From an uncultured Patescibacteria group bacterium (GTDB lineage Bacteria; Patescibacteriota; Minisyncoccia; Phycocordibacterales; UBA12088), in the NCBI GenBank assembly GCA_947259245.1, contig CAMYLP010000003.1, forward strand, positions 27,118 through 91,117: 64,000 nt of DNA, in the 5' to 3' direction. Made by a program: the position numbers and the translations under genes. The notes under the pieces were generated by a model. It was not told the DNA's origin. It did no database searches and worked only from the letters and a program-made list of their open reading frames with translations. Below, one piece after another: positions 4,287 through 18,198 of the stretch (its first letter is position 1; every line of letters starts with the position of its first letter).

Positions 4287-4685
4287 TTAGAGCTTCAGGT
4301 CTGCCATCGCCTCATCGAGACTCTTTGCCGCATCTGTTTCTGGTGCCGCATCAGCTGCTGGAGCATCATCAGCTGCAGGAGCGTCGTCGGCTGCCGCTGT
4401 TGCAGGTGCACCGCCCTCCTTGCTGCGCAGACCACCTTCTGGTTCATTGATCTTTAAGTTCACACGTGCATTGTTTTTCATCCCAACAACACGGAGAAGC
4501 GTCCGGATGGCCTTTGCGGTGTTGCCACTGCGACCAATTATTTTTCCCATGTCTTCTGCGTGGATGTCGAGTGTAAGTAGTACTCCCATCTCATCTACAG
4601 TTCGGTCCACCTTTACTGCTTCTGGGTGGTCTACCAATCCCTTTACGACAAACTCGAGGAATGCCTGATCATCTTCTTGCTGCAT
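4287..4685 (-). CDS. KH-domain RNA-binding protein (YlqC/UPF0109-like) with Ala/Asp/Pro-rich C-terminal tail
   Basis: GKIIGRSGNTAKAIRTLL KH motif; conserved position between rpsP and trmD. Confidence 0.75.
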   Translation of the reverse strand: MQQEDDQAFLEFVVKGLVDHPEAVKVDRTVDEMGVLLTLDIHAEDMGKIIGRSGNTAKAIRTLLRVVGMKNNARVNLKINEPEGGLRSKEGGAPATAAADDAPAADDAPAADAAPETDAAKSLDEAMADLKL

Positions 4686-4781: not shown

Positions 4782-5201
4782 TTACGCGGCCACTTCCTCT
4801 TTCTTCCCCTCTTCTTTCGGCTCTTCAGCCTCCTTCTCTACTACCTCTTTTTGTGCTTCTTTGTCACCTTCTTTTGATGGTTCATCGGACGCCTCTTCGG
4901 CGACTTCCTCCTCAGCTTCCTTTTGGATAGGATTCTTCTTTGGGAGGACGTTCTTCTTGTCTCCTTTGATGACCTTGTGCGTGACAAGCAGGTTGTGTAG
5001 CGTGTCACTTACCTGCGCACCGTTCGAGATCCACTTTTTCACACTTTCTTCATTCACACTGAAAGCGTCAGTGTGCGGGTTATAGTTACCGATTACCTCA
5101 AGGTAGTTGCCACTCTGTGGTCCACGCGTGTGTTCCGTAACAACAACTCGGAATTCGGCGTGATTACGGCGCCCGACACGTTGTAGTCTGATGATTAACA
5201 T
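4782..5201 (-). CDS. rpsP: 30S ribosomal protein S16 with lysine/glutamate-rich C-terminal extension
   Basis: MLIIRLQRVGRRNHAEFRVVV.. S16 N-terminus; start trimmed to ATG at 5199-5201. Confidence 0.85.
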   Translation of the reverse strand: MLIIRLQRVGRRNHAEFRVVVTEHTRGPQSGNYLEVIGNYNPHTDAFSVNEESVKKWISNGAQVSDTLHNLLVTHKVIKGDKKNVLPKKNPIQKEAEEEVAEEASDEPSKEGDKEAQKEVVEKEAEEPKEEGKKEEVAA

Positions 5202-5252
5202 AGTGGCAGATACAGTACCAGATGAAATAGGGCTGGTCAACCTATGACGTGT

Positions 5253-5963
5253 TCATGCATTCCATCCTTTGGTCTCTAGTGCACATTGTGCGGCAGACTG
5301 CTCCGCCTCCTGTTTACTTCTTCCCGCGCCCTCAGCAACAAGTTCTTCATCAAGATACGCTCCAACGACGAATCGTTTATCGTGGTCAGGTCCATCTTCT
5401 GCAATGATGGCATATCGGGGCGTGATGGAGACATGTTCCTGCGCCTCTTCTTGGAAACGACTCTTACTATCTTGCCACAAGCGTTGTCTAACAACCTCGT
5501 CGACAAGAGGAAATATGTTTACCGCTATAAAACGCTGAGCATCATCATAGCCCATTCCGAGATATATCGCACCGATAACAGCCTCGAATGTGTTTGCGAG
5601 GATGTACTGTCGAGCACGACCCGTGTCTCGAGATTCTCCTCGGCTTAAGAGCAGAAGATCGTTCATGTCAAGTTTTGACGCTGCATCACTTATTGTGTTT
5701 GTGTTTACAAGAGCTGCTCTGTAGGAAGTTAACTCACCCTCAGTGCTGTCTGGATACTTGTCGTACAGAAATCTTGTGACGGCTAATTCCAATACCGCGT
5801 CACCTAAAAACTCCAGCCGCTCGTTATGCTCGATTGGATCGCCACGATGCTCATTGACGTAACTCCTGTGTGTAAACGCTGTACGGAGTAGTGACAGGTC
5901 CATGGTCGCGACCTCAAGTTTTTGTGCAAACTGTTGTAAGTGCTTTGTGTAGTCTTCATTCAT
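5253..5963 (-). CDS. rnc: ribonuclease III
   Basis: ERLEFLGDAVLELAVT RNase III signature plus C-terminal dsRBD (KQEAEQSAAQ). Confidence 0.9.
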   Translation of the reverse strand: MNEDYTKHLQQFAQKLEVATMDLSLLRTAFTHRSYVNEHRGDPIEHNERLEFLGDAVLELAVTRFLYDKYPDSTEGELTSYRAALVNTNTISDAASKLDMNDLLLLSRGESRDTGRARQYILANTFEAVIGAIYLGMGYDDAQRFIAVNIFPLVDEVVRQRLWQDSKSRFQEEAQEHVSITPRYAIIAEDGPDHDKRFVVGAYLDEELVAEGAGRSKQEAEQSAAQCALETKGWNA

Positions 5964-6021
5964 GTTTCTTGTAGAGCGTGTTGATACACGCTCGACGCAG
6001 TGCAGTCATGAGAGCTGACTG

Positions 6022-6957
6022 CTACTTTTTTTTGGCGTCCTGTGGGTTTAACAGTATGTTAATTGCCTTGGTAATGATGGTCAGAATGTCGTGGTAGAAG
6101 TTCAGCTCAAGTATGTCGGCAAGCTTGAACCAACGAGCGTCGTCCAATCCTCCCTTTTCTTCTAACACAATATCAGCAAAAGGCGCTTCGAGAAGAAAGT
6201 ACGTGACATGTTTGCGTATCTTACCCTTCTCAGGGTTGCTAGCCACATACTCATTCTCACCAAGTTTTTCTCTGAGGTCCGCATCAAGGCCAAGTTCTTG
6301 CTTTATCTCACGTATCGTACCTTGTTCTTCGGTTTCAGCGTCTTCTATTCCACCCTTGGGCAGTGTCCAGTGACCAAAGACATCGTGTACAAGTGCTACA
6401 TATACGTCATCATCATGCCGTGCGTACACGACAGCCCCACCCTTGCGCTCGACGGGCATTTGGTCATATGGTACCAGCGGATGTTTCTTTCTTTCCTTGC
6501 GCTTGCTCGTCTCATCCTTACCTGGTTCACCAAGCTCTTTATATACGGATCCAAGTACGCCGTTGATGAATCTCCCAGAGGATTCACCCCCGAAGTTCTT
6601 ACCAAGTTCTATTGCCTCATTAATTGCCACTTTGGCAGGAACCTCACTACGATCAGCAAAAAGAAGTTCAAATAAGCCGATACGCAGTATGTTGCGATCC
6701 ACCCGTGAAATTTTATCTAGCGGCCATTCCGGAGCAGCCTTAGTTATGACCGCGTCCAGATCATTTTGCTTTTGGAGTATACCATCCAACAATGCCGTCA
6801 TAAACGGCTTATCTTGACTGTCGGGAGCAAACTCTCCAATATTTCTTTCAAGTATGTTGTTCGTGGCCGGGGTATTGTCGGAATTATCTTCGAGGTTCAT
6901 GTCCCACTCGAAGAGTGTCTGCAGTACAATAGACCGAGATAGGTGCCTGTTTGACAT
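6022..6957 (-). CDS. nusB: NusB antitermination factor fused to C-terminal NUDIX hydrolase domain
   Basis: N-terminal ~150 aa NusB-like (ISRVDRNILRIGLFELLF, AINEAIELGK); C-terminal ~155 aa with Nudix box GGIEDAETEEQGTIREIKQELGL. Confidence 0.75.
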   Translation of the reverse strand: MSNRHLSRSIVLQTLFEWDMNLEDNSDNTPATNNILERNIGEFAPDSQDKPFMTALLDGILQKQNDLDAVITKAAPEWPLDKISRVDRNILRIGLFELLFADRSEVPAKVAINEAIELGKNFGGESSGRFINGVLGSVYKELGEPGKDETSKRKERKKHPLVPYDQMPVERKGGAVVYARHDDDVYVALVHDVFGHWTLPKGGIEDAETEEQGTIREIKQELGLDADLREKLGENEYVASNPEKGKIRKHVTYFLLEAPFADIVLEEKGGLDDARWFKLADILELNFYHDILTIITKAINILLNPQDAKKK

Positions 6958-7030: not shown

Positions 7031-7285
7031 CTACTTCTTTTCTGAGGCCTTTTTCTGACTCTTTTCCGTGGCCTCCGTCTTATTCGCGGACTTTTTTGGT
7101 GTCCCGGCAGGGGTGTTTTCACCCATTGCTATGATCTGCTTTCCGCGATACATACCGGTAGCGGGGTCCATAAAATGCCTACGGCGCGAACCGCTAGGCG
7201 TTTTCACAAGACGCGGCGTACCTGCGCGATGATGCGCGCGACGGCTTGCTGTCTTGCTATGGGTTAGCTTCATCCGTACCGACAT
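7031..7285 (-). CDS. rpmF: 50S ribosomal protein L32 with Lys-rich C-terminal tail
   Basis: MSVRMKLTHSKTASRRAHHRAGTP..YRGKQII resembles L32; start trimmed to internal Met. Confidence 0.6.
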   Translation of the reverse strand: MSVRMKLTHSKTASRRAHHRAGTPRLVKTPSGSRRRHFMDPATGMYRGKQIIAMGENTPAGTPKKSANKTEATEKSQKKASEKK

Positions 7286-7375
7286 TGCAGCAACTATACC
7301 CAGAAATGGGAGAAATGCAAGCATTCTTGTCCACTTGTACAGCCTCTGCGCCCCATAAACGAGCTTGTGGGCTCG

Positions 7376-7963
7376 TTACGTACTCCTGACCGCTTTACAG
7401 TAGGTGTGGCGGTGTACGGGCGTTAATCCGTGTCTCTGTATGGCTCGACGATGTATTTCCGTACCATAACCTTTGTGGGTATGGAATTTGTATTCTGGGT
7501 ACCTCGGGTGTTGTTTTCCCATGTACCTATCGCGCGTGACCTTGGCCGCTATAGAAGCTGCACCGATGAGTGGCTCAAGTGCATCACCTCGTATGATAGT
7601 ATCTTGGCTCTTATATTTTTTGGGAGCATAGAGAGCACCATCGAGCAAAATGTGTGTTTCGTCAGGATGTAAGGCCAGCTTGCTAAGACACCGTGACAAA
7701 GCGGTGCGGATTGCCCATTGTATTCCCTTTCGGTCGATCAGTGGTGCCCCCACCATGGAAACCGTAAACCATAGATCTGTGGCCGACATAAGTGCATCAT
7801 ATAATTCTGACCTTTTGTTTTCTGTTACTGACTTGGAGTCACACATCTGCGGCAGTACGTCTGGGACATGACTGGTGTCAATACAAACAGCCCCTACAGC
7901 CACAGGACCTGCGAGAGGTCCCCGCCCAGCTTCATCTATACCCACCAGATAGCGCGCTTTCAT
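7376..7963 (-). CDS. rnhB: ribonuclease HII
   Basis: MKARYLVGIDEAGRGPLAGPVAVGAV RNase HII N-terminal signature. Confidence 0.9.
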   Translation of the reverse strand: MKARYLVGIDEAGRGPLAGPVAVGAVCIDTSHVPDVLPQMCDSKSVTENKRSELYDALMSATDLWFTVSMVGAPLIDRKGIQWAIRTALSRCLSKLALHPDETHILLDGALYAPKKYKSQDTIIRGDALEPLIGAASIAAKVTRDRYMGKQHPRYPEYKFHTHKGYGTEIHRRAIQRHGLTPVHRHTYCKAVRST

Positions 7964-11178: not shown

Positions 11179-11775
11179 CTACTGAACGGTGATCAGTTTC
11201 TCACCGTACCCGTACTCGGGGTACTCGAGTACAAAGCGGTAGGTTCCTGGACGCAATGAATAGTTGGACTGGAGATGTTCTATCTCGAACATGCGGGTTG
11301 CGCCGGCTGCAAGTGTGTACTGCACACGCTCATCTGTTTGGCAGCGTTGTTCATCGGCACTACTGTAAACAAGAGCACTGTCAGCCGCATAGATACGATA
11401 AATGATCTGGCACCGCCGTTTTGCCTCCATCATCATGGTCGTATTTGTCTCATTCGTTACCAAAAGCAGGAGACCTTTAATGTCCTCTGATGGAGCGTAT
11501 GTCAGGTCTGCGTACTCAATGAGCTGTGAAACTTTTACGCGCACATTGTTTCCTGATGTTTTCTTCGCCTCTTCAATGCGCTCTATTGCACCTGTTAACT
11601 CGCGAGCACGCTCAACCGCGTACTCTGGTACAATTCCGCGTTCGATCAGAAGATCCACAAAACCCGAAACAGTACTGGAAGAGTGTGTTGTGGAGGATTG
11701 AGCAGCCCATGCCACCGTACAACCCGAAACGAACACAAGCGCTCCAACAAGTAAGTATAGTTTTCTCATACTCAT
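11179..11775 (-). CDS. hypothetical lipoprotein
   Basis: Signal peptide with lipobox-like LVFVSGC; no recognisable domain. Confidence 0.5.
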   Translation of the reverse strand: MSMRKLYLLVGALVFVSGCTVAWAAQSSTTHSSSTVSGFVDLLIERGIVPEYAVERARELTGAIERIEEAKKTSGNNVRVKVSQLIEYADLTYAPSEDIKGLLLLVTNETNTTMMMEAKRRCQIIYRIYAADSALVYSSADEQRCQTDERVQYTLAAGATRMFEIEHLQSNYSLRPGTYRFVLEYPEYGYGEKLITVQ

Positions 11776-11873
11776 ATACTGTACTCTACGAGCAATTAGC
11801 ACAAGTATTGCACGATCTATGTTTATGGGTGTATAGTAGCGCGGGATGTCAACAGCTCATAAAGGAGGGGACC

Positions 11874-14148: not shown

Positions 14149-15981
14149 TTACTTGATACCCTGGAAAAGTTCGAATACTTTTGCGAGTGCTACTTTCGTG
14201 CCAATTCGAGCATTTGAATAGCTGTAGTCAACACATTCAACCAGAGTGCCGAGTACTTTTTCAAAGTCTGCAGCGCTCCAGGACGCGGTCAACTGTGCGA
14301 GTTGTGCATCTGGCTTGCGGTTGCCCTCAAGTCGATGCTTGTACACTTCGTCTAGGTCGCGAATAACACGGCCGATAAAATCTGCACTGTCTATTCCCTT
14401 TGTACCAAGCGTACGCAATAGTTCAAAGGCCTTTTGCTGTTGCTTTTCTACCAAGTACCCCACAAAGAGTGGTATGACTCGCATGTCATTGTCAGGTGCT
14501 GCCTCTACATTGTCAGTAACGGGTGAACCAGCATTTTGTGTTGCTTGTGCACGTTCCACGCGTTGGTGCGGTACATGTGCTCTTGGTGCTGACTGTGTCG
14601 GTACTGATCGTTGCGGCGCTGTAGCTCGAGACGTAACGGCAGGTGTTGTCGTGTCCACGGTCACATCTTGACCGCTTTGCGATGCTGAGCTCATGAGCTT
14701 TTGGCATCGTTCCTTCGACAGTAGAATCCACCCGTCTTCTCTTGGGTACATGGCTTTTGCCTGCCCGAATAGTCCATCAAGCACCTCCGTGCTGTGTTCG
14801 TTATCTTTGTTCACGAGTTCAGCTATCATACGGCCTGCTTCAGGTGACAACAGAATGTTGTCACGATGTGCGCGATCCTCGATCTGTGTGTACGAGTCAC
14901 CACCGTGCATATTGCTCATGCTAACGGGTGACGGAACAGCCGTGAGTTGGGACCGTTCGGTCGTGTGTGTATCCAAGAGTGTATGTACTGCTGCGTGCGA
15001 GTACGGACTCTTTTTTTCAGTGAGGTCGGCACGATACGTTTGAAAACGTTCAAGTGGTCGTACTACGGTTAGGGCGTATGCGATCAAGGCACTCAGTAGC
15101 AGAACTCCCATCCAGAATACAGCAGTCATTATTGGCCCTGCCTCAAAGCCAGTGTATGGTACCTGATCAAGTGTGATGAAGCTACCTGCACGTGTTACTG
15201 TGCTGTTAAGAAGAATGTTCGGCTCAGGCTCCTCCTCATCGTCGTCATTCACCACGGTACCACCACCACCATTGTCATCTTCATCGTCATCACCATTGCA
15301 GTTTATACAGCTTCCGCCACCGCCACCTCCGCCGCCACCTCCGCCGCCTGTGCTGATGGAAACTGAAGCACTACAGCTTGTGCTATCGCCATCGTCATTT
15401 GAGAATGAAGCTGTGTACGTGATATTTTCGCTTATCGTCACAATCTCACTTCCACTCGTCGCAACTGGTCCAAATCCCGGATCAAGTGTTCCAGTACTAG
15501 CATTATCACTAGACCATGTAATGGTCACCATGTCGCCACTGTTCACTGTAGATGCGCTTACGCTAATGTCACATGATAACTGGTCAACCGGTGGCTCAGT
15601 TTCCTTAGTCAATGCGACACAGACCGGCTGAACGCTGTTTGCAGAACTGAGGTCCGGGTAAGCTGCGTGATCTGCACGTACAGCATCAGCATCACTTGTA
15701 AGGACAAATGCGCTTTCAAGTGTTTCGTTGATCTGAGAAGAAACGACGTTGTCTTCAAGATCAGTTGTCGCTGCTGTGGCACCAAGCGTGGTGTCACCAG
15801 AAAGGAATGTCACGAACCAACTTTCATTTGGTTGTGAGTGGTCGACACGCGTTTCGTAGCCATCCCATGAAGCTGATTCCACAGTGTAGGTTCCAGCAGG
15901 AAGAGGTGCGCTGTACACATCACTCTGCGCATCGTCGAGAGCCCCATTGCTCATCAAGCGCTCGTGGTCACCAAAGTACAC
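14149..15981 (-). CDS. hypothetical membrane protein: ~315-aa ectodomain, poly-Gly/acidic linker, sorting-signal-like VPYTG + TM + R, ~330-aa cytoplasmic domain
   Basis: GTG start in ORF track; no own signal peptide; single TM IMTAVFWMGVLLLSALIAYALTVV; last gene of the sortase operon. Confidence 0.55.
   Translation of the reverse strand: MYFGDHERLMSNGALDDAQSDVYSAPLPAGTYTVESASWDGYETRVDHSQPNESWFVTFLSGDTTLGATAATTDLEDNVVSSQINETLESAFVLTSDADAVRADHAAYPDLSSANSVQPVCVALTKETEPPVDQLSCDISVSASTVNSGDMVTITWSSDNASTGTLDPGFGPVATSGSEIVTISENITYTASFSNDDGDSTSCSASVSISTGGGGGGGGGGGGSCINCNGDDDEDDNGGGGTVVNDDDEEEPEPNILLNSTVTRAGSFITLDQVPYTGFEAGPIMTAVFWMGVLLLSALIAYALTVVRPLERFQTYRADLTEKKSPYSHAAVHTLLDTHTTERSQLTAVPSPVSMSNMHGGDSYTQIEDRAHRDNILLSPEAGRMIAELVNKDNEHSTEVLDGLFGQAKAMYPREDGWILLSKERCQKLMSSASQSGQDVTVDTTTPAVTSRATAPQRSVPTQSAPRAHVPHQRVERAQATQNAGSPVTDNVEAAPDNDMRVIPLFVGYLVEKQQQKAFELLRTLGTKGIDSADFIGRVIRDLDEVYKHRLEGNRKPDAQLAQLTASWSAADFEKVLGTLVECVDYSYSNARIGTKVALAKVFELFQGIK
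15314..15350. repeat. GGN/GCC codon repeat encoding 12-Gly tract
   Basis: tccgccaccgccacctccgccgccacctccgccgcc on + strand (poly-Gly on minus). Confidence 0.8.
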
Positions 15982-15997: not shown

Positions 15998-16657
15998 TCA
16001 GGAGTGAACGGACATACAGGACCTTCCGGTTCGGTCTGACACGCACGTACGCTCTACAGTAGTGGAACATTGCCCTCCTTTACCTGAAACACTGGAAAGC
16101 TGTTTGTTGAATTCTACTGTCTCAACATCACTCCACGATTCTTCGACTTTACCACTGGATGTACCATCACAGAAATATGCAGTGTAGTGTGATAGCGCAG
16201 GAGGACCAGCCCATGTGAAGCTTGTCTCATGTATCGATAGGTCTACAGACTCACATGTATTGGTCGGTGCTGTGGCTGGCTCTACATGTACGGCACATGA
16301 CATTGTATCGTCAGTGTAGTCAACGTGTGTGTGCGCTACGAATGTCGTCGGCTCGTGAATGACTGTTTGTACCGAACCTGTACGACCAAATACCTGTCCT
16401 TCCAGCTGTTCTATGGTGAGTGAATCAGTATCTGCTGCAGCGTTCCATGACAGAGTTACGATAGTGCCTTCTGCGGAGTATTCAGTCACCGCCTCAATAG
16501 TACATTCCCATGCCAATGCTGACTCCGTCGCAAAACGTACAGGTGCCGCCTCAAGCATGAATAGTGCCATGATGACGAATGCACTCAGCACACCGCTTTT
16601 CAATAGCGTAGTTGCATGTGATCGTGCGATTTTTGTAATATGTGTAATGGTGTTCAT
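15998..16657 (-). CDS. hypothetical secreted protein (signal peptide, Cys-containing beta-rich domain)
   Basis: N-terminal signal/TM LLKSGVLSAFVIMALFMLEAAPV; 3' end overlaps the next ORF by 59 nt in another frame. Confidence 0.5.
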   Translation of the reverse strand: MNTITHITKIARSHATTLLKSGVLSAFVIMALFMLEAAPVRFATESALAWECTIEAVTEYSAEGTIVTLSWNAAADTDSLTIEQLEGQVFGRTGSVQTVIHEPTTFVAHTHVDYTDDTMSCAVHVEPATAPTNTCESVDLSIHETSFTWAGPPALSHYTAYFCDGTSSGKVEESWSDVETVEFNKQLSSVSGKGGQCSTTVERTCVSDRTGRSCMSVHS

Positions 16658-16690: not shown

Positions 16691-17359
16691 CTACTGTACG
16701 TACTGCTTTTTGTCTGTTAATGATGCGGTGACTACCCACCGCTCCTGCTTGGCGCCAAACGTGTTGCACGTGGCCAAAGTCAGTGTGGGCGTATCCGCCT
16801 CGAAGTAAATAACTGCGTCATCCGCATTAGCTAGGTATACATCGCGGACTGTGTATTCATACGTGTGCGTATCAGAGTACACAGTGACAACGTCACCATC
16901 ATGCAGTTCTCCCAACTCATTGAACGCTTTGTACGCTTCATTTCGAACCACTGGCAAGTAGCTGCTATGTCCAAAAATGAGCATGTTCGCGCTCTCACCG
17001 GCTAGGCCGGAACCAGGGTACAGCACGGCTCCAGACAATAATGCGCGATCGAGCACCTCTACATCTGTGCTCGTGGGTGACAAAACTGTGGTGTCCACGT
17101 CGATGTCATCGATAACAATGCGTACAGGTGTCGTCAACTCGTACGGCACGTCTACTGCTTCCGTTGTGTTGCCAGAAGCAGGTGTTGCGTACAGTACATC
17201 TGTTGATGTGCTGGTTGACTCGTTGGTCACGGGGACTGGAACGAAATCGATAAGTATTAGCAAGAACGTAAGCACTGCAAATACACCAAACGTTTGCAGT
17301 ACGACGTGCGCACTGTTCGATAGCGTATCTCCTATGCTCCTGTTCTCCTTGTTACTCAT
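16691..17359 (-). CDS. sortase family transpeptidase
   Basis: N-terminal TM, LIFGHSS (His) and TLATCNTFG (TLxTC catalytic Cys) motifs. Confidence 0.85.
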   Translation of the reverse strand: MSNKENRSIGDTLSNSAHVVLQTFGVFAVLTFLLILIDFVPVPVTNESTSTSTDVLYATPASGNTTEAVDVPYELTTPVRIVIDDIDVDTTVLSPTSTDVEVLDRALLSGAVLYPGSGLAGESANMLIFGHSSYLPVVRNEAYKAFNELGELHDGDVVTVYSDTHTYEYTVRDVYLANADDAVIYFEADTPTLTLATCNTFGAKQERWVVTASLTDKKQYVQ

Positions 17360-17421
17360 ATGTTGTTCGTGTGCCGATGGACACACAAGAGCATATAACT
17401 AAATATATTATAGCAGCTATA

Positions 17422-18198
17422 TTATATGCTGTCAATGGTTGCTCCGCGTCCTTCTATAATGAGCGAGGCAAACGCGCGTGCAACTTGTCCGAAGGAGACA
17501 GTGTCAGTGTCGTCTTTCTCTTCATAGTGCACCGTAATAGACTTGGTAGCACAAGTAGGACTTTGTACAGTGATGTGCTGTTTACGTTGAAGTCGCACCA
17601 CCACTACACCCTCAGTTCCCTCCTCATGAATACGAATAGCTCGACGTGCTTTCTTGGCGTTACTCAGACCACTGTCGTTTCCGTGTGTCACAGCCACCGG
17701 AGCAAGACGTAGCGCATACATTGGTGCCCGAACAGCTAAACTGTTACGGTCGTACGAATTTTGTAAGTACGACGTGATGTTTGTACATACAGAACCCAAA
17801 CGTACAAGAATATTTTCGCTTACGCTATCGAGTATGACAAACATTTTCATACTTACTTCGAAAGTTCGTGTGGCTATACTATGTAGTCTCGCGACAATGC
17901 CTGAAAGCCACGTTTGAATGTCTTCGCTAGTTACTGTCGGCACCAAGTGCTTGTTAGGATGCGTGGGGAATATCCTCGCAGCCACAATGTCAGCATCATG
18001 TGTTTTGTACGTATCATGATCCAGATTCAATATTGAGTGTATCTCCGTATGTACGGGCGGTTCGTCCGCATAACATGTTGGCGATGATGCGCGCCGAACA
18101 TCCTCACTCTCAGTAAGGATATCAATAAGAAATTGTGTTTCGTCGAGACACAGCGTATGTGGCACGATCGAGTCTAGTTCTACAGTATTGTATTCCAT
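17422..18198 (-). CDS. hypothetical cytoplasmic protein (258 aa), first gene of sortase operon
   Basis: No TM or signal peptide, no recognised motif; preceded by consensus promoter. Confidence 0.45.
   Translation of the reverse strand: MEYNTVELDSIVPHTLCLDETQFLIDILTESEDVRRASSPTCYADEPPVHTEIHSILNLDHDTYKTHDADIVAARIFPTHPNKHLVPTVTSEDIQTWLSGIVARLHSIATRTFEVSMKMFVILDSVSENILVRLGSVCTNITSYLQNSYDRNSLAVRAPMYALRLAPVAVTHGNDSGLSNAKKARRAIRIHEEGTEGVVVVRLQRKQHITVQSPTCATKSITVHYEEKDDTDTVSFGQVARAFASLIIEGRGATIDSI

Follow-up and report, generated by a model that had tools for sequence, protein, structure and literature searches.

We identified, in the 64,000-nucleotide stretch of uncultured Patescibacteria DNA analysed here (hereafter the window), a 311-residue protein that joins a NusB domain to a Nudix-fold domain in one reading frame. 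The fusion is real and old. In many lineages its Nudix domain has lost catalytic residues and is still strongly conserved, which suggests that the main job of this module is probably binding rather than cutting. Our leading interpretation, held tentatively, is that the protein is a housekeeping NusB carrying a tethered Nudix module that recognises a nucleoside 5'-polyphosphate, with hydrolysis optional and the 5' end of nascent RNA as the likely ligand.

The fusion gene and its parts are laid out as follows:

6022..6957, minus strand: nusB::nudix, complete open reading frame encoding 311 residues, with its stop codon at 6022-6024 and its true start, an ATG, at 6955-6957
6529..6957, minus strand: NusB domain, residues 1-143, all-helical (Pfam, TIGR01951, Foldseek)
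6454..6528, minus strand: flexible charged linker GEPGKDETSKRKERKKHPLVPYDQMP, residues 144-168 (~25 residues), low pLDDT
6046..6453, minus strand: Nudix-fold domain of Ap4A/ApnA-hydrolase type, residues 169-304 (Pfam, PDB sequence and profile searches, Foldseek)

An earlier note on this DNA had described a full NusB fold (N-terminal ~150 residues) fused in one open reading frame to a Nudix domain, and our analysis bears this out. Reading the frame and its translation, we found no internal stop or frameshift within 6022-6957 that would divide it into two genes. A Pfam search matched both domains well above their cut-offs: PF01029 (NusB) over residues 7-140 with 124.3 bits (cut-off 23.1), and PF00293 (NUDIX) over residues 177-287 with 54.9 bits (cut-off 21.1). 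In a survey of domain architecture, both Pfam domains were present in one protein in 120 of the 120 homologues listed. The public annotation of the protein (P0001, 292 residues) places the start at M20 and thereby clips NRHLSRSIVLQTLFEWD, an N-terminal motif that is invariant in the fusion family. Public sources name the fusion simply “NusB”, and our searches of a PMC/bioRxiv collection found no paper describing a NusB-Nudix fusion, in line with the earlier note, whose author was aware of no characterised example.

AlphaFold2 modelled both domains confidently, with mean pLDDT values of 82 and 91.6, and assigned a pLDDT below 50 to residues 145-158 and 149-156 of the linker in two models, respectively. 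Family members have between 12 and 46 residues (median 26) aligned with positions 141-172, a span that includes the linker; ~21% of these residues are K/R and ~25% D/E. These models portray the NusB and Nudix domains as independently folding units joined by a disordered linker. The pTM of the full fusion rose from 0.49 to 0.65 when the alignment was deeper, a rise that may be compatible with a fixed packing of the two domains, and hence with an allosteric rather than a “fishing-line” arrangement.

The NusB half has the hallmarks of a genuine bacterial NusB (E. coli, T. maritima, Aquifex) in its fold and core-domain length. It scores 121.2 bits against the NCBIfam equivalog model TIGR01951 (nusB; cut-off 88.35) and can be aligned along its full length with residues 6-129 of E. 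coli NusB. The predicted structure has seven helices over residues 3-142, mostly with pLDDT above 90, and Foldseek superposes it on T. maritima NusB (1tzv; TM 0.86, rmsd 1.9) and on Aquifex NusB in 3r2d (TM 0.86). The C-terminal half of the domain retains the conserved pattern VPxKVAINEAIELxKxFGG..S..F(I/V)NGVL, and F16, D81 and D87 are conservative counterparts of E. coli NusB Y18, E75 and E81, which we take to be NusE-contact residues. A standalone 150-residue NusB in one relative occupies the same L32-nusB-rnc slot, and the 64-kb window contains no second NusB or Nudix open reading frame. Taken together, these four lines (equivalog score, whole-domain alignment, shared slot and lack of a second NusB frame in the window) make the best reading that the fusion is the orthologous housekeeping nusB of a Kaiserbacteria-like member of the Parcubacteria/Paceibacteria (CPR). 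It departs from other bacterial NusB proteins by a C-terminal extension of ~170 residues comprising linker and Nudix domain, and we know of no characterised NusB with an accessory domain. The RsmB/Sun 16S rRNA m5C967 methyltransferase likewise fuses a NusB-like N-terminal domain to an rRNA-acting enzyme, but its partner is a SAM methyltransferase rather than Nudix. RsmB models match our protein through the NusB domain only (63.7 bits against a cut-off of 319); the N-domain of RsmB is paralogous to NusB, but the fusion passes the NusB equivalog model itself.

The fusion belongs to a co-directional cluster, rnhB-rpmF-nusB::nudix-rnc-rpsP-khpA-trmD, within which we detected no terminator-like site on the minus strand between 7963 and 3569. 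The nearest genes are:

7376..7963, minus strand: rnhB (RNase HII; Pfam), first gene of the co-directional cluster
7031..7324, minus strand: rpmF (ribosomal protein L32; Pfam), conserved upstream neighbour
5253..5963, minus strand: rnc (RNase III; Pfam Ribonuclease_3 and dsrm), conserved downstream neighbour

For context analysis we kept 80 loci, all in Parcubacteria-type MAGs. The order rpmF-nusB::nudix-rnc is nearly constant across fusion loci, even at 35% identity, and differs from the ribH-nusB context of the E. coli gene. We found rnhB in 72 of the 80 loci and rnc downstream of the fusion in all 78 informative ones, directly adjacent (gap ≤157 nt) in 61. The earlier note had read the coupling of the two domains next to rnc as pointing to co-transcriptional RNA 5'-end processing or decapping. 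The proximity itself is confirmed, with rnc 58 nt downstream, but its weight as evidence on the Nudix part is reduced: since a standalone nusB fills the same L32-nusB-rnc slot in a relative, the adjacency belongs to nusB itself. The 64-kb window contains three tRNAs and no rRNA operon, rRNA leader or boxA.

Sequence, profile and fold searches agree in placing the Nudix module with the Ap4A/ApnA hydrolases. Searching the PDB with the single sequence returned C. trachomatis CT771 (4e-8), T. thermophilus Ndx1 (2e-7; 1vc8) and Aquifex aq_158 (6e-7). Searching with the family profile returned aq_158 as the best match (9.6e-20 over positions 3-135), then CT771, Ndx1, human NUDT2 (7e-12) and the C. 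elegans Ap4A hydrolase (5e-11), with Dcp2 as the next family after the Ap4A/Ap6A hydrolases. The top Foldseek match is likewise the Aquifex Ap4A hydrolase (3i7u; TM 0.92, rmsd 1.9), and the NrtR Nudix domain with bound ADP-ribose appears at ranks 6-7. The fusion also shares with these enzymes the W-T/V-x-P-K-G motif ahead of the box, and its Y237, kept in 123 of 133 family members including those with a dead box, aligns with the Tyr of the Ndx1 TRYV motif. Nudix Ap4A hydrolases are described as sharing a base-stacking Tyr or Phe, usually 17 residues past the Nudix box (PMC2425470); in both Ndx1 and the fusion this distance is 13 residues. On the agreement of these searches and the conserved Y237, the module is of the Ap4A/ApnA-hydrolase type (aq_158, Ndx1, NUDT2). 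The characterised hydrolases are free-standing, single-domain proteins with complete Nudix boxes, whereas the fusion's domain is tethered to NusB, has Gln in place of one box Glu in the genome studied here and, in about half of the fusion family, has no catalytic Glu.

The earlier note's assignment of the domain to the RppH type did not survive these comparisons. RppH (E. coli NudH, Bdellovibrio BdRppH) has a Nudix fold in common with the module and perhaps also an activity on polyphosphorylated RNA 5' ends; Np4N caps are a further substrate of E. coli RppH (PMC9283932). Membership in the RppH family is nevertheless rejected, as the module fails every NCBIfam RppH model (PRK00714 series), the best at 28.2 bits against a cut-off of 118 and the others at 18-22 bits against 116-259, with alignments covering the Nudix box only. 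In the fold search BdRppH ranks 42nd (TM 0.67), its profile match is partial, spanning 36 residues at 4.7e-5, and the 60 family-profile matches listed do not include E. coli RppH.

The Nudix box itself, and its single unusual codon, are located as follows:

6286..6354, minus strand: Nudix box GGIEDAETEEQGTIREIKQELGL, residues 202-224, with G202, E208, R216, E217, Q220, E221 and G223
6298..6300, minus strand: codon CAA for Q220, the sole departure from the Nudix-box consensus in this genome

Compared with GX5EX7REUXEEXGU, all positions match except the first Glu of the EE pair, which is Gln (RE..QE). A Nudix box is thus present, as the earlier note had stated, though with Q220 in place of the consensus Glu its description as canonical was slightly overstated. 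Position 220 is Q in 72, E in 25 and D in 15 of 121 close relatives, while G202, E208, R216, E217 and E221 are near-invariant in this genome and its close relatives. Farther afield the picture changes at E217, the catalytic Glu of the RE pair: it is replaced by V, K, A, G or N in 25 of 78 species-level genomes, and among divergent cluster representatives it is kept in just 12 of 54 and lost in 42. On a neighbour-joining tree there are at least 19 changes of state.

Purifying selection on the dead-box domains is strong: their dN/dS was 0.031 and 0.007 in two unsaturated pairs, values not above those of the NusB part. In these members D192, F194, W197, T198, K201, Y237, K249, Y253, W276, Y288 and D290 are conserved at 84% or more, and the acidic residues E208, E236, E266 and D272 are relaxed. 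In the intact-box group the whole acidic site, accessory residues included, is co-conserved, which suggests a real enzyme in that group. The loss of E217 in about half of the sampled family, combined with continued purifying selection on dead-box domains, argues that hydrolysis cannot be the conserved purpose of the fusion. This signature of a non-catalytic Nudix domain (loss of a box Glu, with fold and pocket kept under selection) marks about half of the family; the window protein itself has only the one Glu-to-Gln change, and probably retains hydrolysis.

In the reading we tentatively favour, the NusB domain (residues 1-143) would, by homology, pair with S10 (NusE) within the rRNA antitermination complex and bind boxA RNA there, and the tether would let the Nudix module catch the 5' end of the transcript beside RNA polymerase. 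What the family conserves would be the ability of the Nudix pocket to recognise, rather than hydrolyse, a nucleoside 5'-polyphosphate. The most likely ligand would be the 5' end, triphosphorylated or NpnN-capped, of the very transcript that NusB/S10 holds as it emerges. Lineages with a full acidic active site, this genome included (RE..QE, one conservative change), would probably cleave the ligand too, perhaps slowly, leaving a monophosphate or diphosphate end for later processing, and those with V, K, I or A at the catalytic Glu would bind alone. The data show the layout of the fusion, the descent of each domain, how old and conserved the fusion is, the recurrent loss of catalytic residues and the purifying selection on dead-box domains, whereas the ligand and any coupling of the module to antitermination or rRNA processing are inferred. 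A role at RNA 5' ends is possible for a module of this type: NUDT2 dephosphorylates PPP-RNA (PMC8616924), and NpnN caps are removed by Nudix enzymes and ApaH (PMC9283932). Only the homology of pocket residues points to a particular ligand, with an RNA 5' end the probable candidate and a free nucleotide of ApnA type a possible one.

For the dead-box members, the closest functional analogy is CFIm25 (NUDT21), which in mammals forms the 25-kDa subunit of cleavage factor Im. It brings an Ap4A-hydrolase-like Nudix fold into a transcription-coupled RNA-processing factor, has lost two box glutamates, and binds Ap4A, with low-micromolar affinity, and ATP but hydrolyses neither (PMC2425470). The likeness is one of function. 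CFIm25 is eukaryotic, is not fused to NusB, belongs to another Pfam family (NUDIX_4) and uses residues outside the box region. A more specific form of our reading, which we regard as possible but doubtful, is that the rRNA antitermination complex of Parcubacteria has acquired a built-in reader of nucleoside polyphosphates or RNA 5' ends, which in some lineages is also an eraser. NusB-S10 would sit on boxA, with the Nudix module catching the 5'-ppp or Np4N-capped end of the same nascent transcript and, by lineage, protecting or converting it; or else Ap4A-type alarmone sensing would gate antitermination.

The earlier note had instead proposed co-transcriptional 5'-end processing or decapping. 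In its full form this would make the protein an active RppH-like RNA pyrophosphohydrolase or decapping enzyme, converting 5'-ppp or capped ends of nascent rRNA and mRNA catalytically and together with RNase III. In favour of such an enzyme are the near-invariant R216, E217, E221, G202 and E208 of this genome and its close relatives and the co-conserved accessory acidic residues of the intact-box group, as are the action of NUDT2-type Nudix proteins on PPP-RNA, the rank of Dcp2 directly behind the Ap4A hydrolases and the conserved presence of rnc. Against these stand the wide failure of the RppH equivalog models and the low rank of RppH structures, the loss of the catalytic Glu in about half of a family whose Nudix domain remains under strong purifying selection, and the presence of the rnc linkage where the Nudix domain is lacking. 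In addition, we take Q220 to be equivalent to MutT E56Q, a change that lowers kcat ~25-fold. We consider this reading unlikely as a whole; of the earlier proposal, the possible role at RNA 5' ends stands, and catalysis as the conserved purpose does not.

The pocket might alternatively bind a free small molecule, namely Ap4A/ApnA, (p)ppGpp or an NTP, and so tune the assembly of NusB-S10-boxA, making rRNA antitermination responsive to stress or energy status. A small-molecule ligand of this kind is equally consistent with the known activity of the nearest characterised relatives, aq_158, Ndx1 and CT771, which hydrolyse free dinucleoside polyphosphates, and pocket residues are kept where catalysis is lost. 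NrtR, a top fold match, offers a precedent: it is a transcription factor that senses ADP-ribose through a non-catalytic Nudix domain, although it is fused to a winged-helix DNA-binding domain, controls NAD genes and has a different ligand chemistry. The binding of Ap4A by CFIm25 without hydrolysis is a further parallel (PMC2425470), and with the deeper alignment the pTM of 0.65 may hint at a defined contact between the domains. Since the linker is disordered in the models, with no sign of an allosteric contact, we judge such a sensor rather unlikely.

Could the Nudix fold act as a docking module, a structural subunit of the antitermination complex whose conserved aromatic and basic residues form an interface with RNA polymerase, S10, NusA/G or RNase III? 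The inositol-monophosphatase fold of SuhB plays a structural part of this kind in the E. coli antitermination complex, and in our family the catalytic residues are dispensable while non-catalytic ones are strongly conserved. Non-enzymatic Nudix domains that mediate protein interactions are also a recognised class (PMC5389931). The conserved residues, however, coincide with base- and phosphate-binding positions of Ap4A hydrolases (the K of PKG and the Y of EYV; PMC2425470), and the intact-box group keeps a complete active site, so we regard a docking role as improbable.

It is also conceivable that the halves are functionally uncoupled, an adjacent housekeeping ApnA/NTP pyrophosphatase having joined nusB through loss of a stop codon, with the Nudix half decaying in some lineages. 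The flexible linker and independent domains agree with this, as does the relative with a standalone NusB in the same context, in which the Nudix domain is absent. Genome-reduced CPR bacteria, moreover, tend to accumulate fusions. The dead-box domains, however, are not decaying (dN/dS 0.007-0.03, with pocket residues at least 84% conserved), and the fusion has been retained over a wide range: it is encoded in at least 171 species-level Parcubacteria/Paceibacteria genomes and forms ~54 full-length clusters at 50% identity, reaching down to 33% identity. In a search for an ancestral state of separate nusB and nudix genes, the only apparent split examined (locus L081) consists of one in-frame TAA in place of the Tyr codon of GVLGxVYKE, after which the frame continues, and is best read as a nonsense mutation or sequencing error rather than a two-gene ancestor. 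Identities between standalone and fused NusB relatives are similar both ways, at ~50-60%, and fit either order of gain and loss. We therefore hold uncoupled halves to be very improbable; if they were uncoupled, the finding would shrink to an annotation note, with the genes renamed “NusB/Nudix fusion” instead of “NusB”. An artefactual origin, in which an overlooked frameshift or an error of sequencing or assembly merged two genes, can be dismissed almost entirely, because the same continuous frame recurs in hundreds of independent assemblies (NCBI, JGI, ENA, Logan). A 142-residue “standalone Nudix” protein (P0218) sits on a contig of 695 bp and is uninformative about a split state.

NusB belongs to the universal core machinery of rRNA transcription in bacteria. 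When an entire clade conserves a fusion of this kind, the fusion can be read as a “Rosetta stone”, predicting that the antitermination complex is functionally linked to nucleoside-polyphosphate or RNA 5'-end chemistry. In model bacteria the same link, without any fusion, might have gone unnoticed between NusB and RppH, ApaH or Ap4A. A natural experiment is also available within the family: catalytically intact and dead versions are both under strong selection, which allows binding and hydrolysis functions to be separated. If either the reader/eraser or the alarmone-sensor reading were true, it would reveal a previously unknown layer of control over ribosome synthesis and a bacterial counterpart of the eukaryotic Nudix modules in co-transcriptional RNA processing (CFIm25, Dcp2). 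The rRNA biology of CPR/Patescibacteria is unusual and almost unstudied, and a soluble protein of 311 residues offers a well-defined, inexpensive target for which suitable assays are obvious.

Between the fusion and rnc lies a structured spacer:

5964..6021, minus strand: spacer of 58 nt between the fusion and rnc, with two stable hairpins, not conserved in relatives

We considered these hairpins as a conserved RNase III autoregulatory site and rejected this, as neither length nor structure is conserved across 78 relatives, whose spacers range from an overlap to 1.4 kb and are structured only sometimes. In the window, the spacer folds with an MFE of -32 kcal/mol (z = -4.8). Upstream of the fusion, comparison with the L32 protein of L081 indicates that the real start of rpmF is probably an internal ATG near 7285.

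The gene at 6022-6957 (minus strand) is a single open reading frame of 311 codons that runs from an ATG at 6957 to a stop codon at 6022-6024 with no internal stops. Its product matches the Pfam families NusB (PF01029; residues 7-140, 124.3 bits) and NUDIX (PF00293; residues 177-287, 54.9 bits), each far over the gathering score, and passes the NCBIfam NusB equivalog model TIGR01951 (121.2 bits versus a cut-off of 88.35), bearing out the NusB-Nudix fusion proposed in an earlier note. The public annotation of this protein, P0001 (292 aa, 100% identical), begins at Met20, so that at window 6898-6957 (minus strand) it loses the NusB N-terminus NRHLSRSIVLQTLFEWD, which is invariant in the family; the correct start is the ATG at 6957. 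AlphaFold2 confidently predicts a helical domain (residues 3-142) and a beta-grasp/alpha Nudix fold (residues 169-304), separated by a disordered segment whose pLDDT falls under 50 (residues 145-158 or 149-156, depending on the model). Mean pLDDT and pTM were 82 and 0.49 with a shallow alignment and 91.6 and 0.65 with a deeper one, and the models allow a possible preferred mutual orientation of the two domains. The linker lies within the stretch that aligns to residues 141-172, and by the length of that stretch it spans 12-46 residues across the family; it is rich in K/R and D/E.

Every one of the 120 matches listed in a search of 5.8 billion proteins, at 69-100% identity, combines the two Pfam domains in a single protein; the assemblies of origin are from NCBI, JGI, ENA and Logan, and where the proteins are named they are called just "NusB". 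With one genome scanned per species, the fusion gene turned up in 171 genomes; 80 of these loci were kept for analysis, in MAGs whose labels read Kaiser-, Zambryski-, Lloyd-, Nomura-, Wolfe- or Adlerbacteria, or Paceibacterota/Parcubacteria. When 1.84 billion cluster representatives were searched exhaustively with HMMER, 161 clusters matched at E <1e-30; about 54 of them are full-length two-domain proteins, down to 33% identity. Nearest to the window organism is a Kaiserbacteria MAG, with 84% identity and an identical gene order over 13 kb. The fusion is real, and the chance that two genes were falsely joined is practically nil given its presence in one protein across all four assembly sources. 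Of the seemingly split nusB/nudix pairs, only that at a relative's locus L081 could be assessed. There a single in-frame TAA (L081 941-943) takes the place of a conserved Tyr codon where the NusB domain ends, so that gene callers report separate "NusB" and "NUDIX" genes; it reflects a nonsense mutation or an error in sequencing and no genuine split. Overall, the fusion is a clade-wide, uncharacterised architecture, with no description found in the literature searched. Many matches bear the label "uncultured Candidatus Saccharibacteria", apparently a generic one, and one contig in a "Nitrospira sp." MAG (L054, JBEBJM010000013.1), with a Parcubacteria-type fusion and synteny, is probably mis-binned; we take such odd labels as binning or labelling noise.

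The fusion gene lies within a cluster in which we found no minus-strand terminator-like site:

7376-7963, minus strand: rnhB
7031-7324, minus strand: rpmF (ribosomal protein L32), between rnhB and the fusion
6022-6957, minus strand: NusB-Nudix fusion
5253-5963, minus strand: rnc, after the fusion
after rnc, minus strand, in order: rpsP (ribosomal protein S16), a KhpA-type KH protein gene, trmD, then rpoB

Downstream of the fusion, rnc is present in 78 of 80 loci (the remaining two contigs end directly past the gene) and is directly adjacent in 61 (gap of at most 157 nt); upstream, rnhB is found in 72 of the 80 and L32 is detectable in 48. The L32-fusion-rnc triad is the same in two members of only about 35% identity. 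Relatives L084-L086 encode a genuine standalone NusB of 150 aa (P0205) that shares 55% identity with the fusion's NusB half and ends in a short K-rich tail; the gene order is L32-nusB-rnc, with only 20 nt ahead of rnc. The adjacency to rnc pointed out earlier is therefore conserved, but as a property of nusB in this lineage it says nothing specific to the Nudix domain. About 30 further clusters are putative standalone NusB proteins (roughly 50-60% identical), and the standalone lineages represent either Nudix loss or the ancestral state. Two stable hairpins (MFE -32 kcal/mol, z = -4.8) form in the 58-nt spacer between fusion and rnc (5964-6021, minus strand). They hinted at a possible RNase III target; spacers in 78 relatives range from an overlap to 1.4 kb and are structured in some only, and the hairpins are thus not a conserved element.

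The window protein belongs to the NusB family. Its NusB half aligns over its whole length with residues 6-129 of E. coli NusB (E = 1e-15) and with T. maritima NusB (E = 9e-19), and the model superposes in Foldseek at a TM of 0.86 on 1tzv and on the Aquifex NusB of the NusB-NusE-RNA complex. E. coli NusB residues Y18, E75 and E81, which make the key NusE contacts, align with F16, D81 and D87. An N-terminal NRHLSRS...LQTLFEWD motif and a VPxKVAINEAIEL...NGVLG block are family-invariant. The 64-kb window contains no second NusB ORF and no rRNA leader. Because of these alignments, the fold, the shared genomic slot and the lack of another NusB ORF in the window, we read this half as an orthologous, working NusB that would bind S10 and boxA.

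The other half belongs to the Nudix superfamily, but the suggested RppH type did not hold. NCBIfam RppH models aligned over the Nudix box only, at 18-28 bits versus cut-offs of 116-259. Single-sequence matches were to CT771, Ndx1 (an Ap6A hydrolase), the Aquifex Ap4A hydrolase, MutT1/Rv2985, and the C. elegans and human Ap4A hydrolases. A profile built from 36 family Nudix domains ranked aq_158 first (9.6e-20, full length), followed by CT771 (1.6e-14), Ndx1 (7e-14), NUDT2 (7e-12), the C. elegans enzyme (5e-11) and then Dcp2 (1.8e-10); BdRppH gave a 36-residue match only (4.7e-5), and E. coli RppH was absent among the 60 matches listed. Foldseek likewise placed 3i7u (TM 0.92, rmsd 1.9) and Ndx1 (0.86) well ahead of BdRppH (rank 42, TM 0.67). 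The agreement of sequence, profile and predicted fold identifies the module as an Ap4A/ApnA-hydrolase-type Nudix domain. The clade does have links to RNA: NUDT2 converts PPP-RNA to P-RNA (PMC8616924), and NpnN and other non-canonical caps are removed by Nudix enzymes and ApaH (PMC9283932).

The Nudix domain had been called canonical, and its box (residues 202-224) does keep every specified residue of GX5EX7REUXEEXGU but one, the first Glu of the EE pair being Q220 (codon CAA at 6298-6300). Among 121 close relatives (at least 69% identity), G202, R216 and E221 are universal and E217 is kept in 118; position 220 varies (72 Q, 25 E, 15 D). E217, the Glu of "RE", aligns with Ndx1 E46, and E221 with Ndx1 E50, the site of the inactivating change in structure 1vc9 (E50Q). 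E217 is replaced by V, K, A, G or N in 25 of 78 species-level loci; only 12 of 54 divergent representatives retain it, and only 9 have RE..EE. On a neighbour-joining tree, the box changed state at least 19 times.

Non-catalytic positions persist in the 73 sequences with degenerate boxes: D192 (67), F194 (66), W197 (69), T198 (66), K201 (70), Y237 (66), K249 (61), Y253 (65), W276 (69), Y288 (70) and D290 (65). The accessory acidic residues E208, E236, E266 and D272 are relaxed in this set and kept in the 60 intact-box sequences. For two dead-box pairs with unsaturated dS, Nudix-part dN/dS was 0.031 (V217; dS 0.20) and 0.007 (K217; dS 0.43), no higher than in the NusB part. The Nudix half therefore occurs in two states: a probably active enzyme, the group into which the window protein falls with its one conservative change, and an inactive but strongly selected domain. 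K201 is the Lys of a W-x-x-P-K-G motif common to Ndx1, CT771 and NUDT2; in Ap4A hydrolases this Lys makes contact with phosphate. The counterpart of Y237 in Ndx1 is the Tyr of "TRYV", and Y237 corresponds to the Tyr/Phe that stacks on the base and that Nudix Ap4A hydrolases have in common beyond the box, on its downstream side (PMC2425470). Since these and other non-catalytic residues survive in degenerate boxes, what the family keeps throughout looks like a nucleotide-polyphosphate pocket, not chemistry.

We favour, tentatively and at a little under even confidence, a model in which NusB performs its usual role and the Nudix module, on its tether, serves to recognise a nucleoside 5'-polyphosphate group. 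As its ligand we prefer the 5' end, ppp or NpnN-capped, of the growing RNA bound to NusB/S10, because the module is tied to an RNA-bound factor at the polymerase and because its clade has RNA 5'-end enzymes, with Dcp2 the next-nearest family. Intact-box lineages, including the one the window comes from, would hydrolyse the captured 5' end as well, perhaps more slowly because of Q220; MutT E56Q reportedly lowers kcat about 25-fold. A precedent is CFIm25, an Ap4A-hydrolase-like Nudix protein in a co-transcriptional RNA-processing factor; having lost two glutamates, CFIm25 binds without hydrolysis (PMC2425470). The fusion is perhaps like NUDT2, Dcp2 and CFIm25 in attaching a Nudix module to RNA-processing machinery; it resembles RsmB in joining a NusB-type domain to a second module. 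Obligatory RppH-like catalysis, the earlier note's route to co-transcriptional 5'-end processing or decapping, is unlikely: the window protein is in the probably active state, but the dead-box majority weakens the model. Less probable again is a module that, like NrtR, senses a free nucleotide (ApnA, ppGpp or NTP) and adjusts antitermination accordingly, and a protein-docking module analogous to SuhB seems improbable. An uncoupled housekeeping enzyme is very improbable, being contradicted by dN/dS in the dead-box pairs.

The L32 ORF as listed (7031-7324, minus strand) has a hydrophobic 13-residue N-terminal extension (MLAFLPFLGIVAA) and a long K-rich C-terminal tail; comparison with the L081 L32 suggests that its true start is an internal Met near 7285. 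Ribosomal protein S16 (4782-5240, minus strand) has a long Glu/Lys-rich tail of about 60 residues, and the KhpA-type KH protein (4287-4685, minus strand) ends in an Ala/Asp/Pro-rich repeat (AADDAPAADDAPAADAAPETDAA). Elsewhere in the window, a sortase gene (16691-17386) is flanked by four ORFs of 207-610 aa without a Pfam match (11179-11802, 14149-15981, 15998-16657 and 17422-18198, all minus strand), which are possibly lineage-specific sortase substrates or surface proteins.
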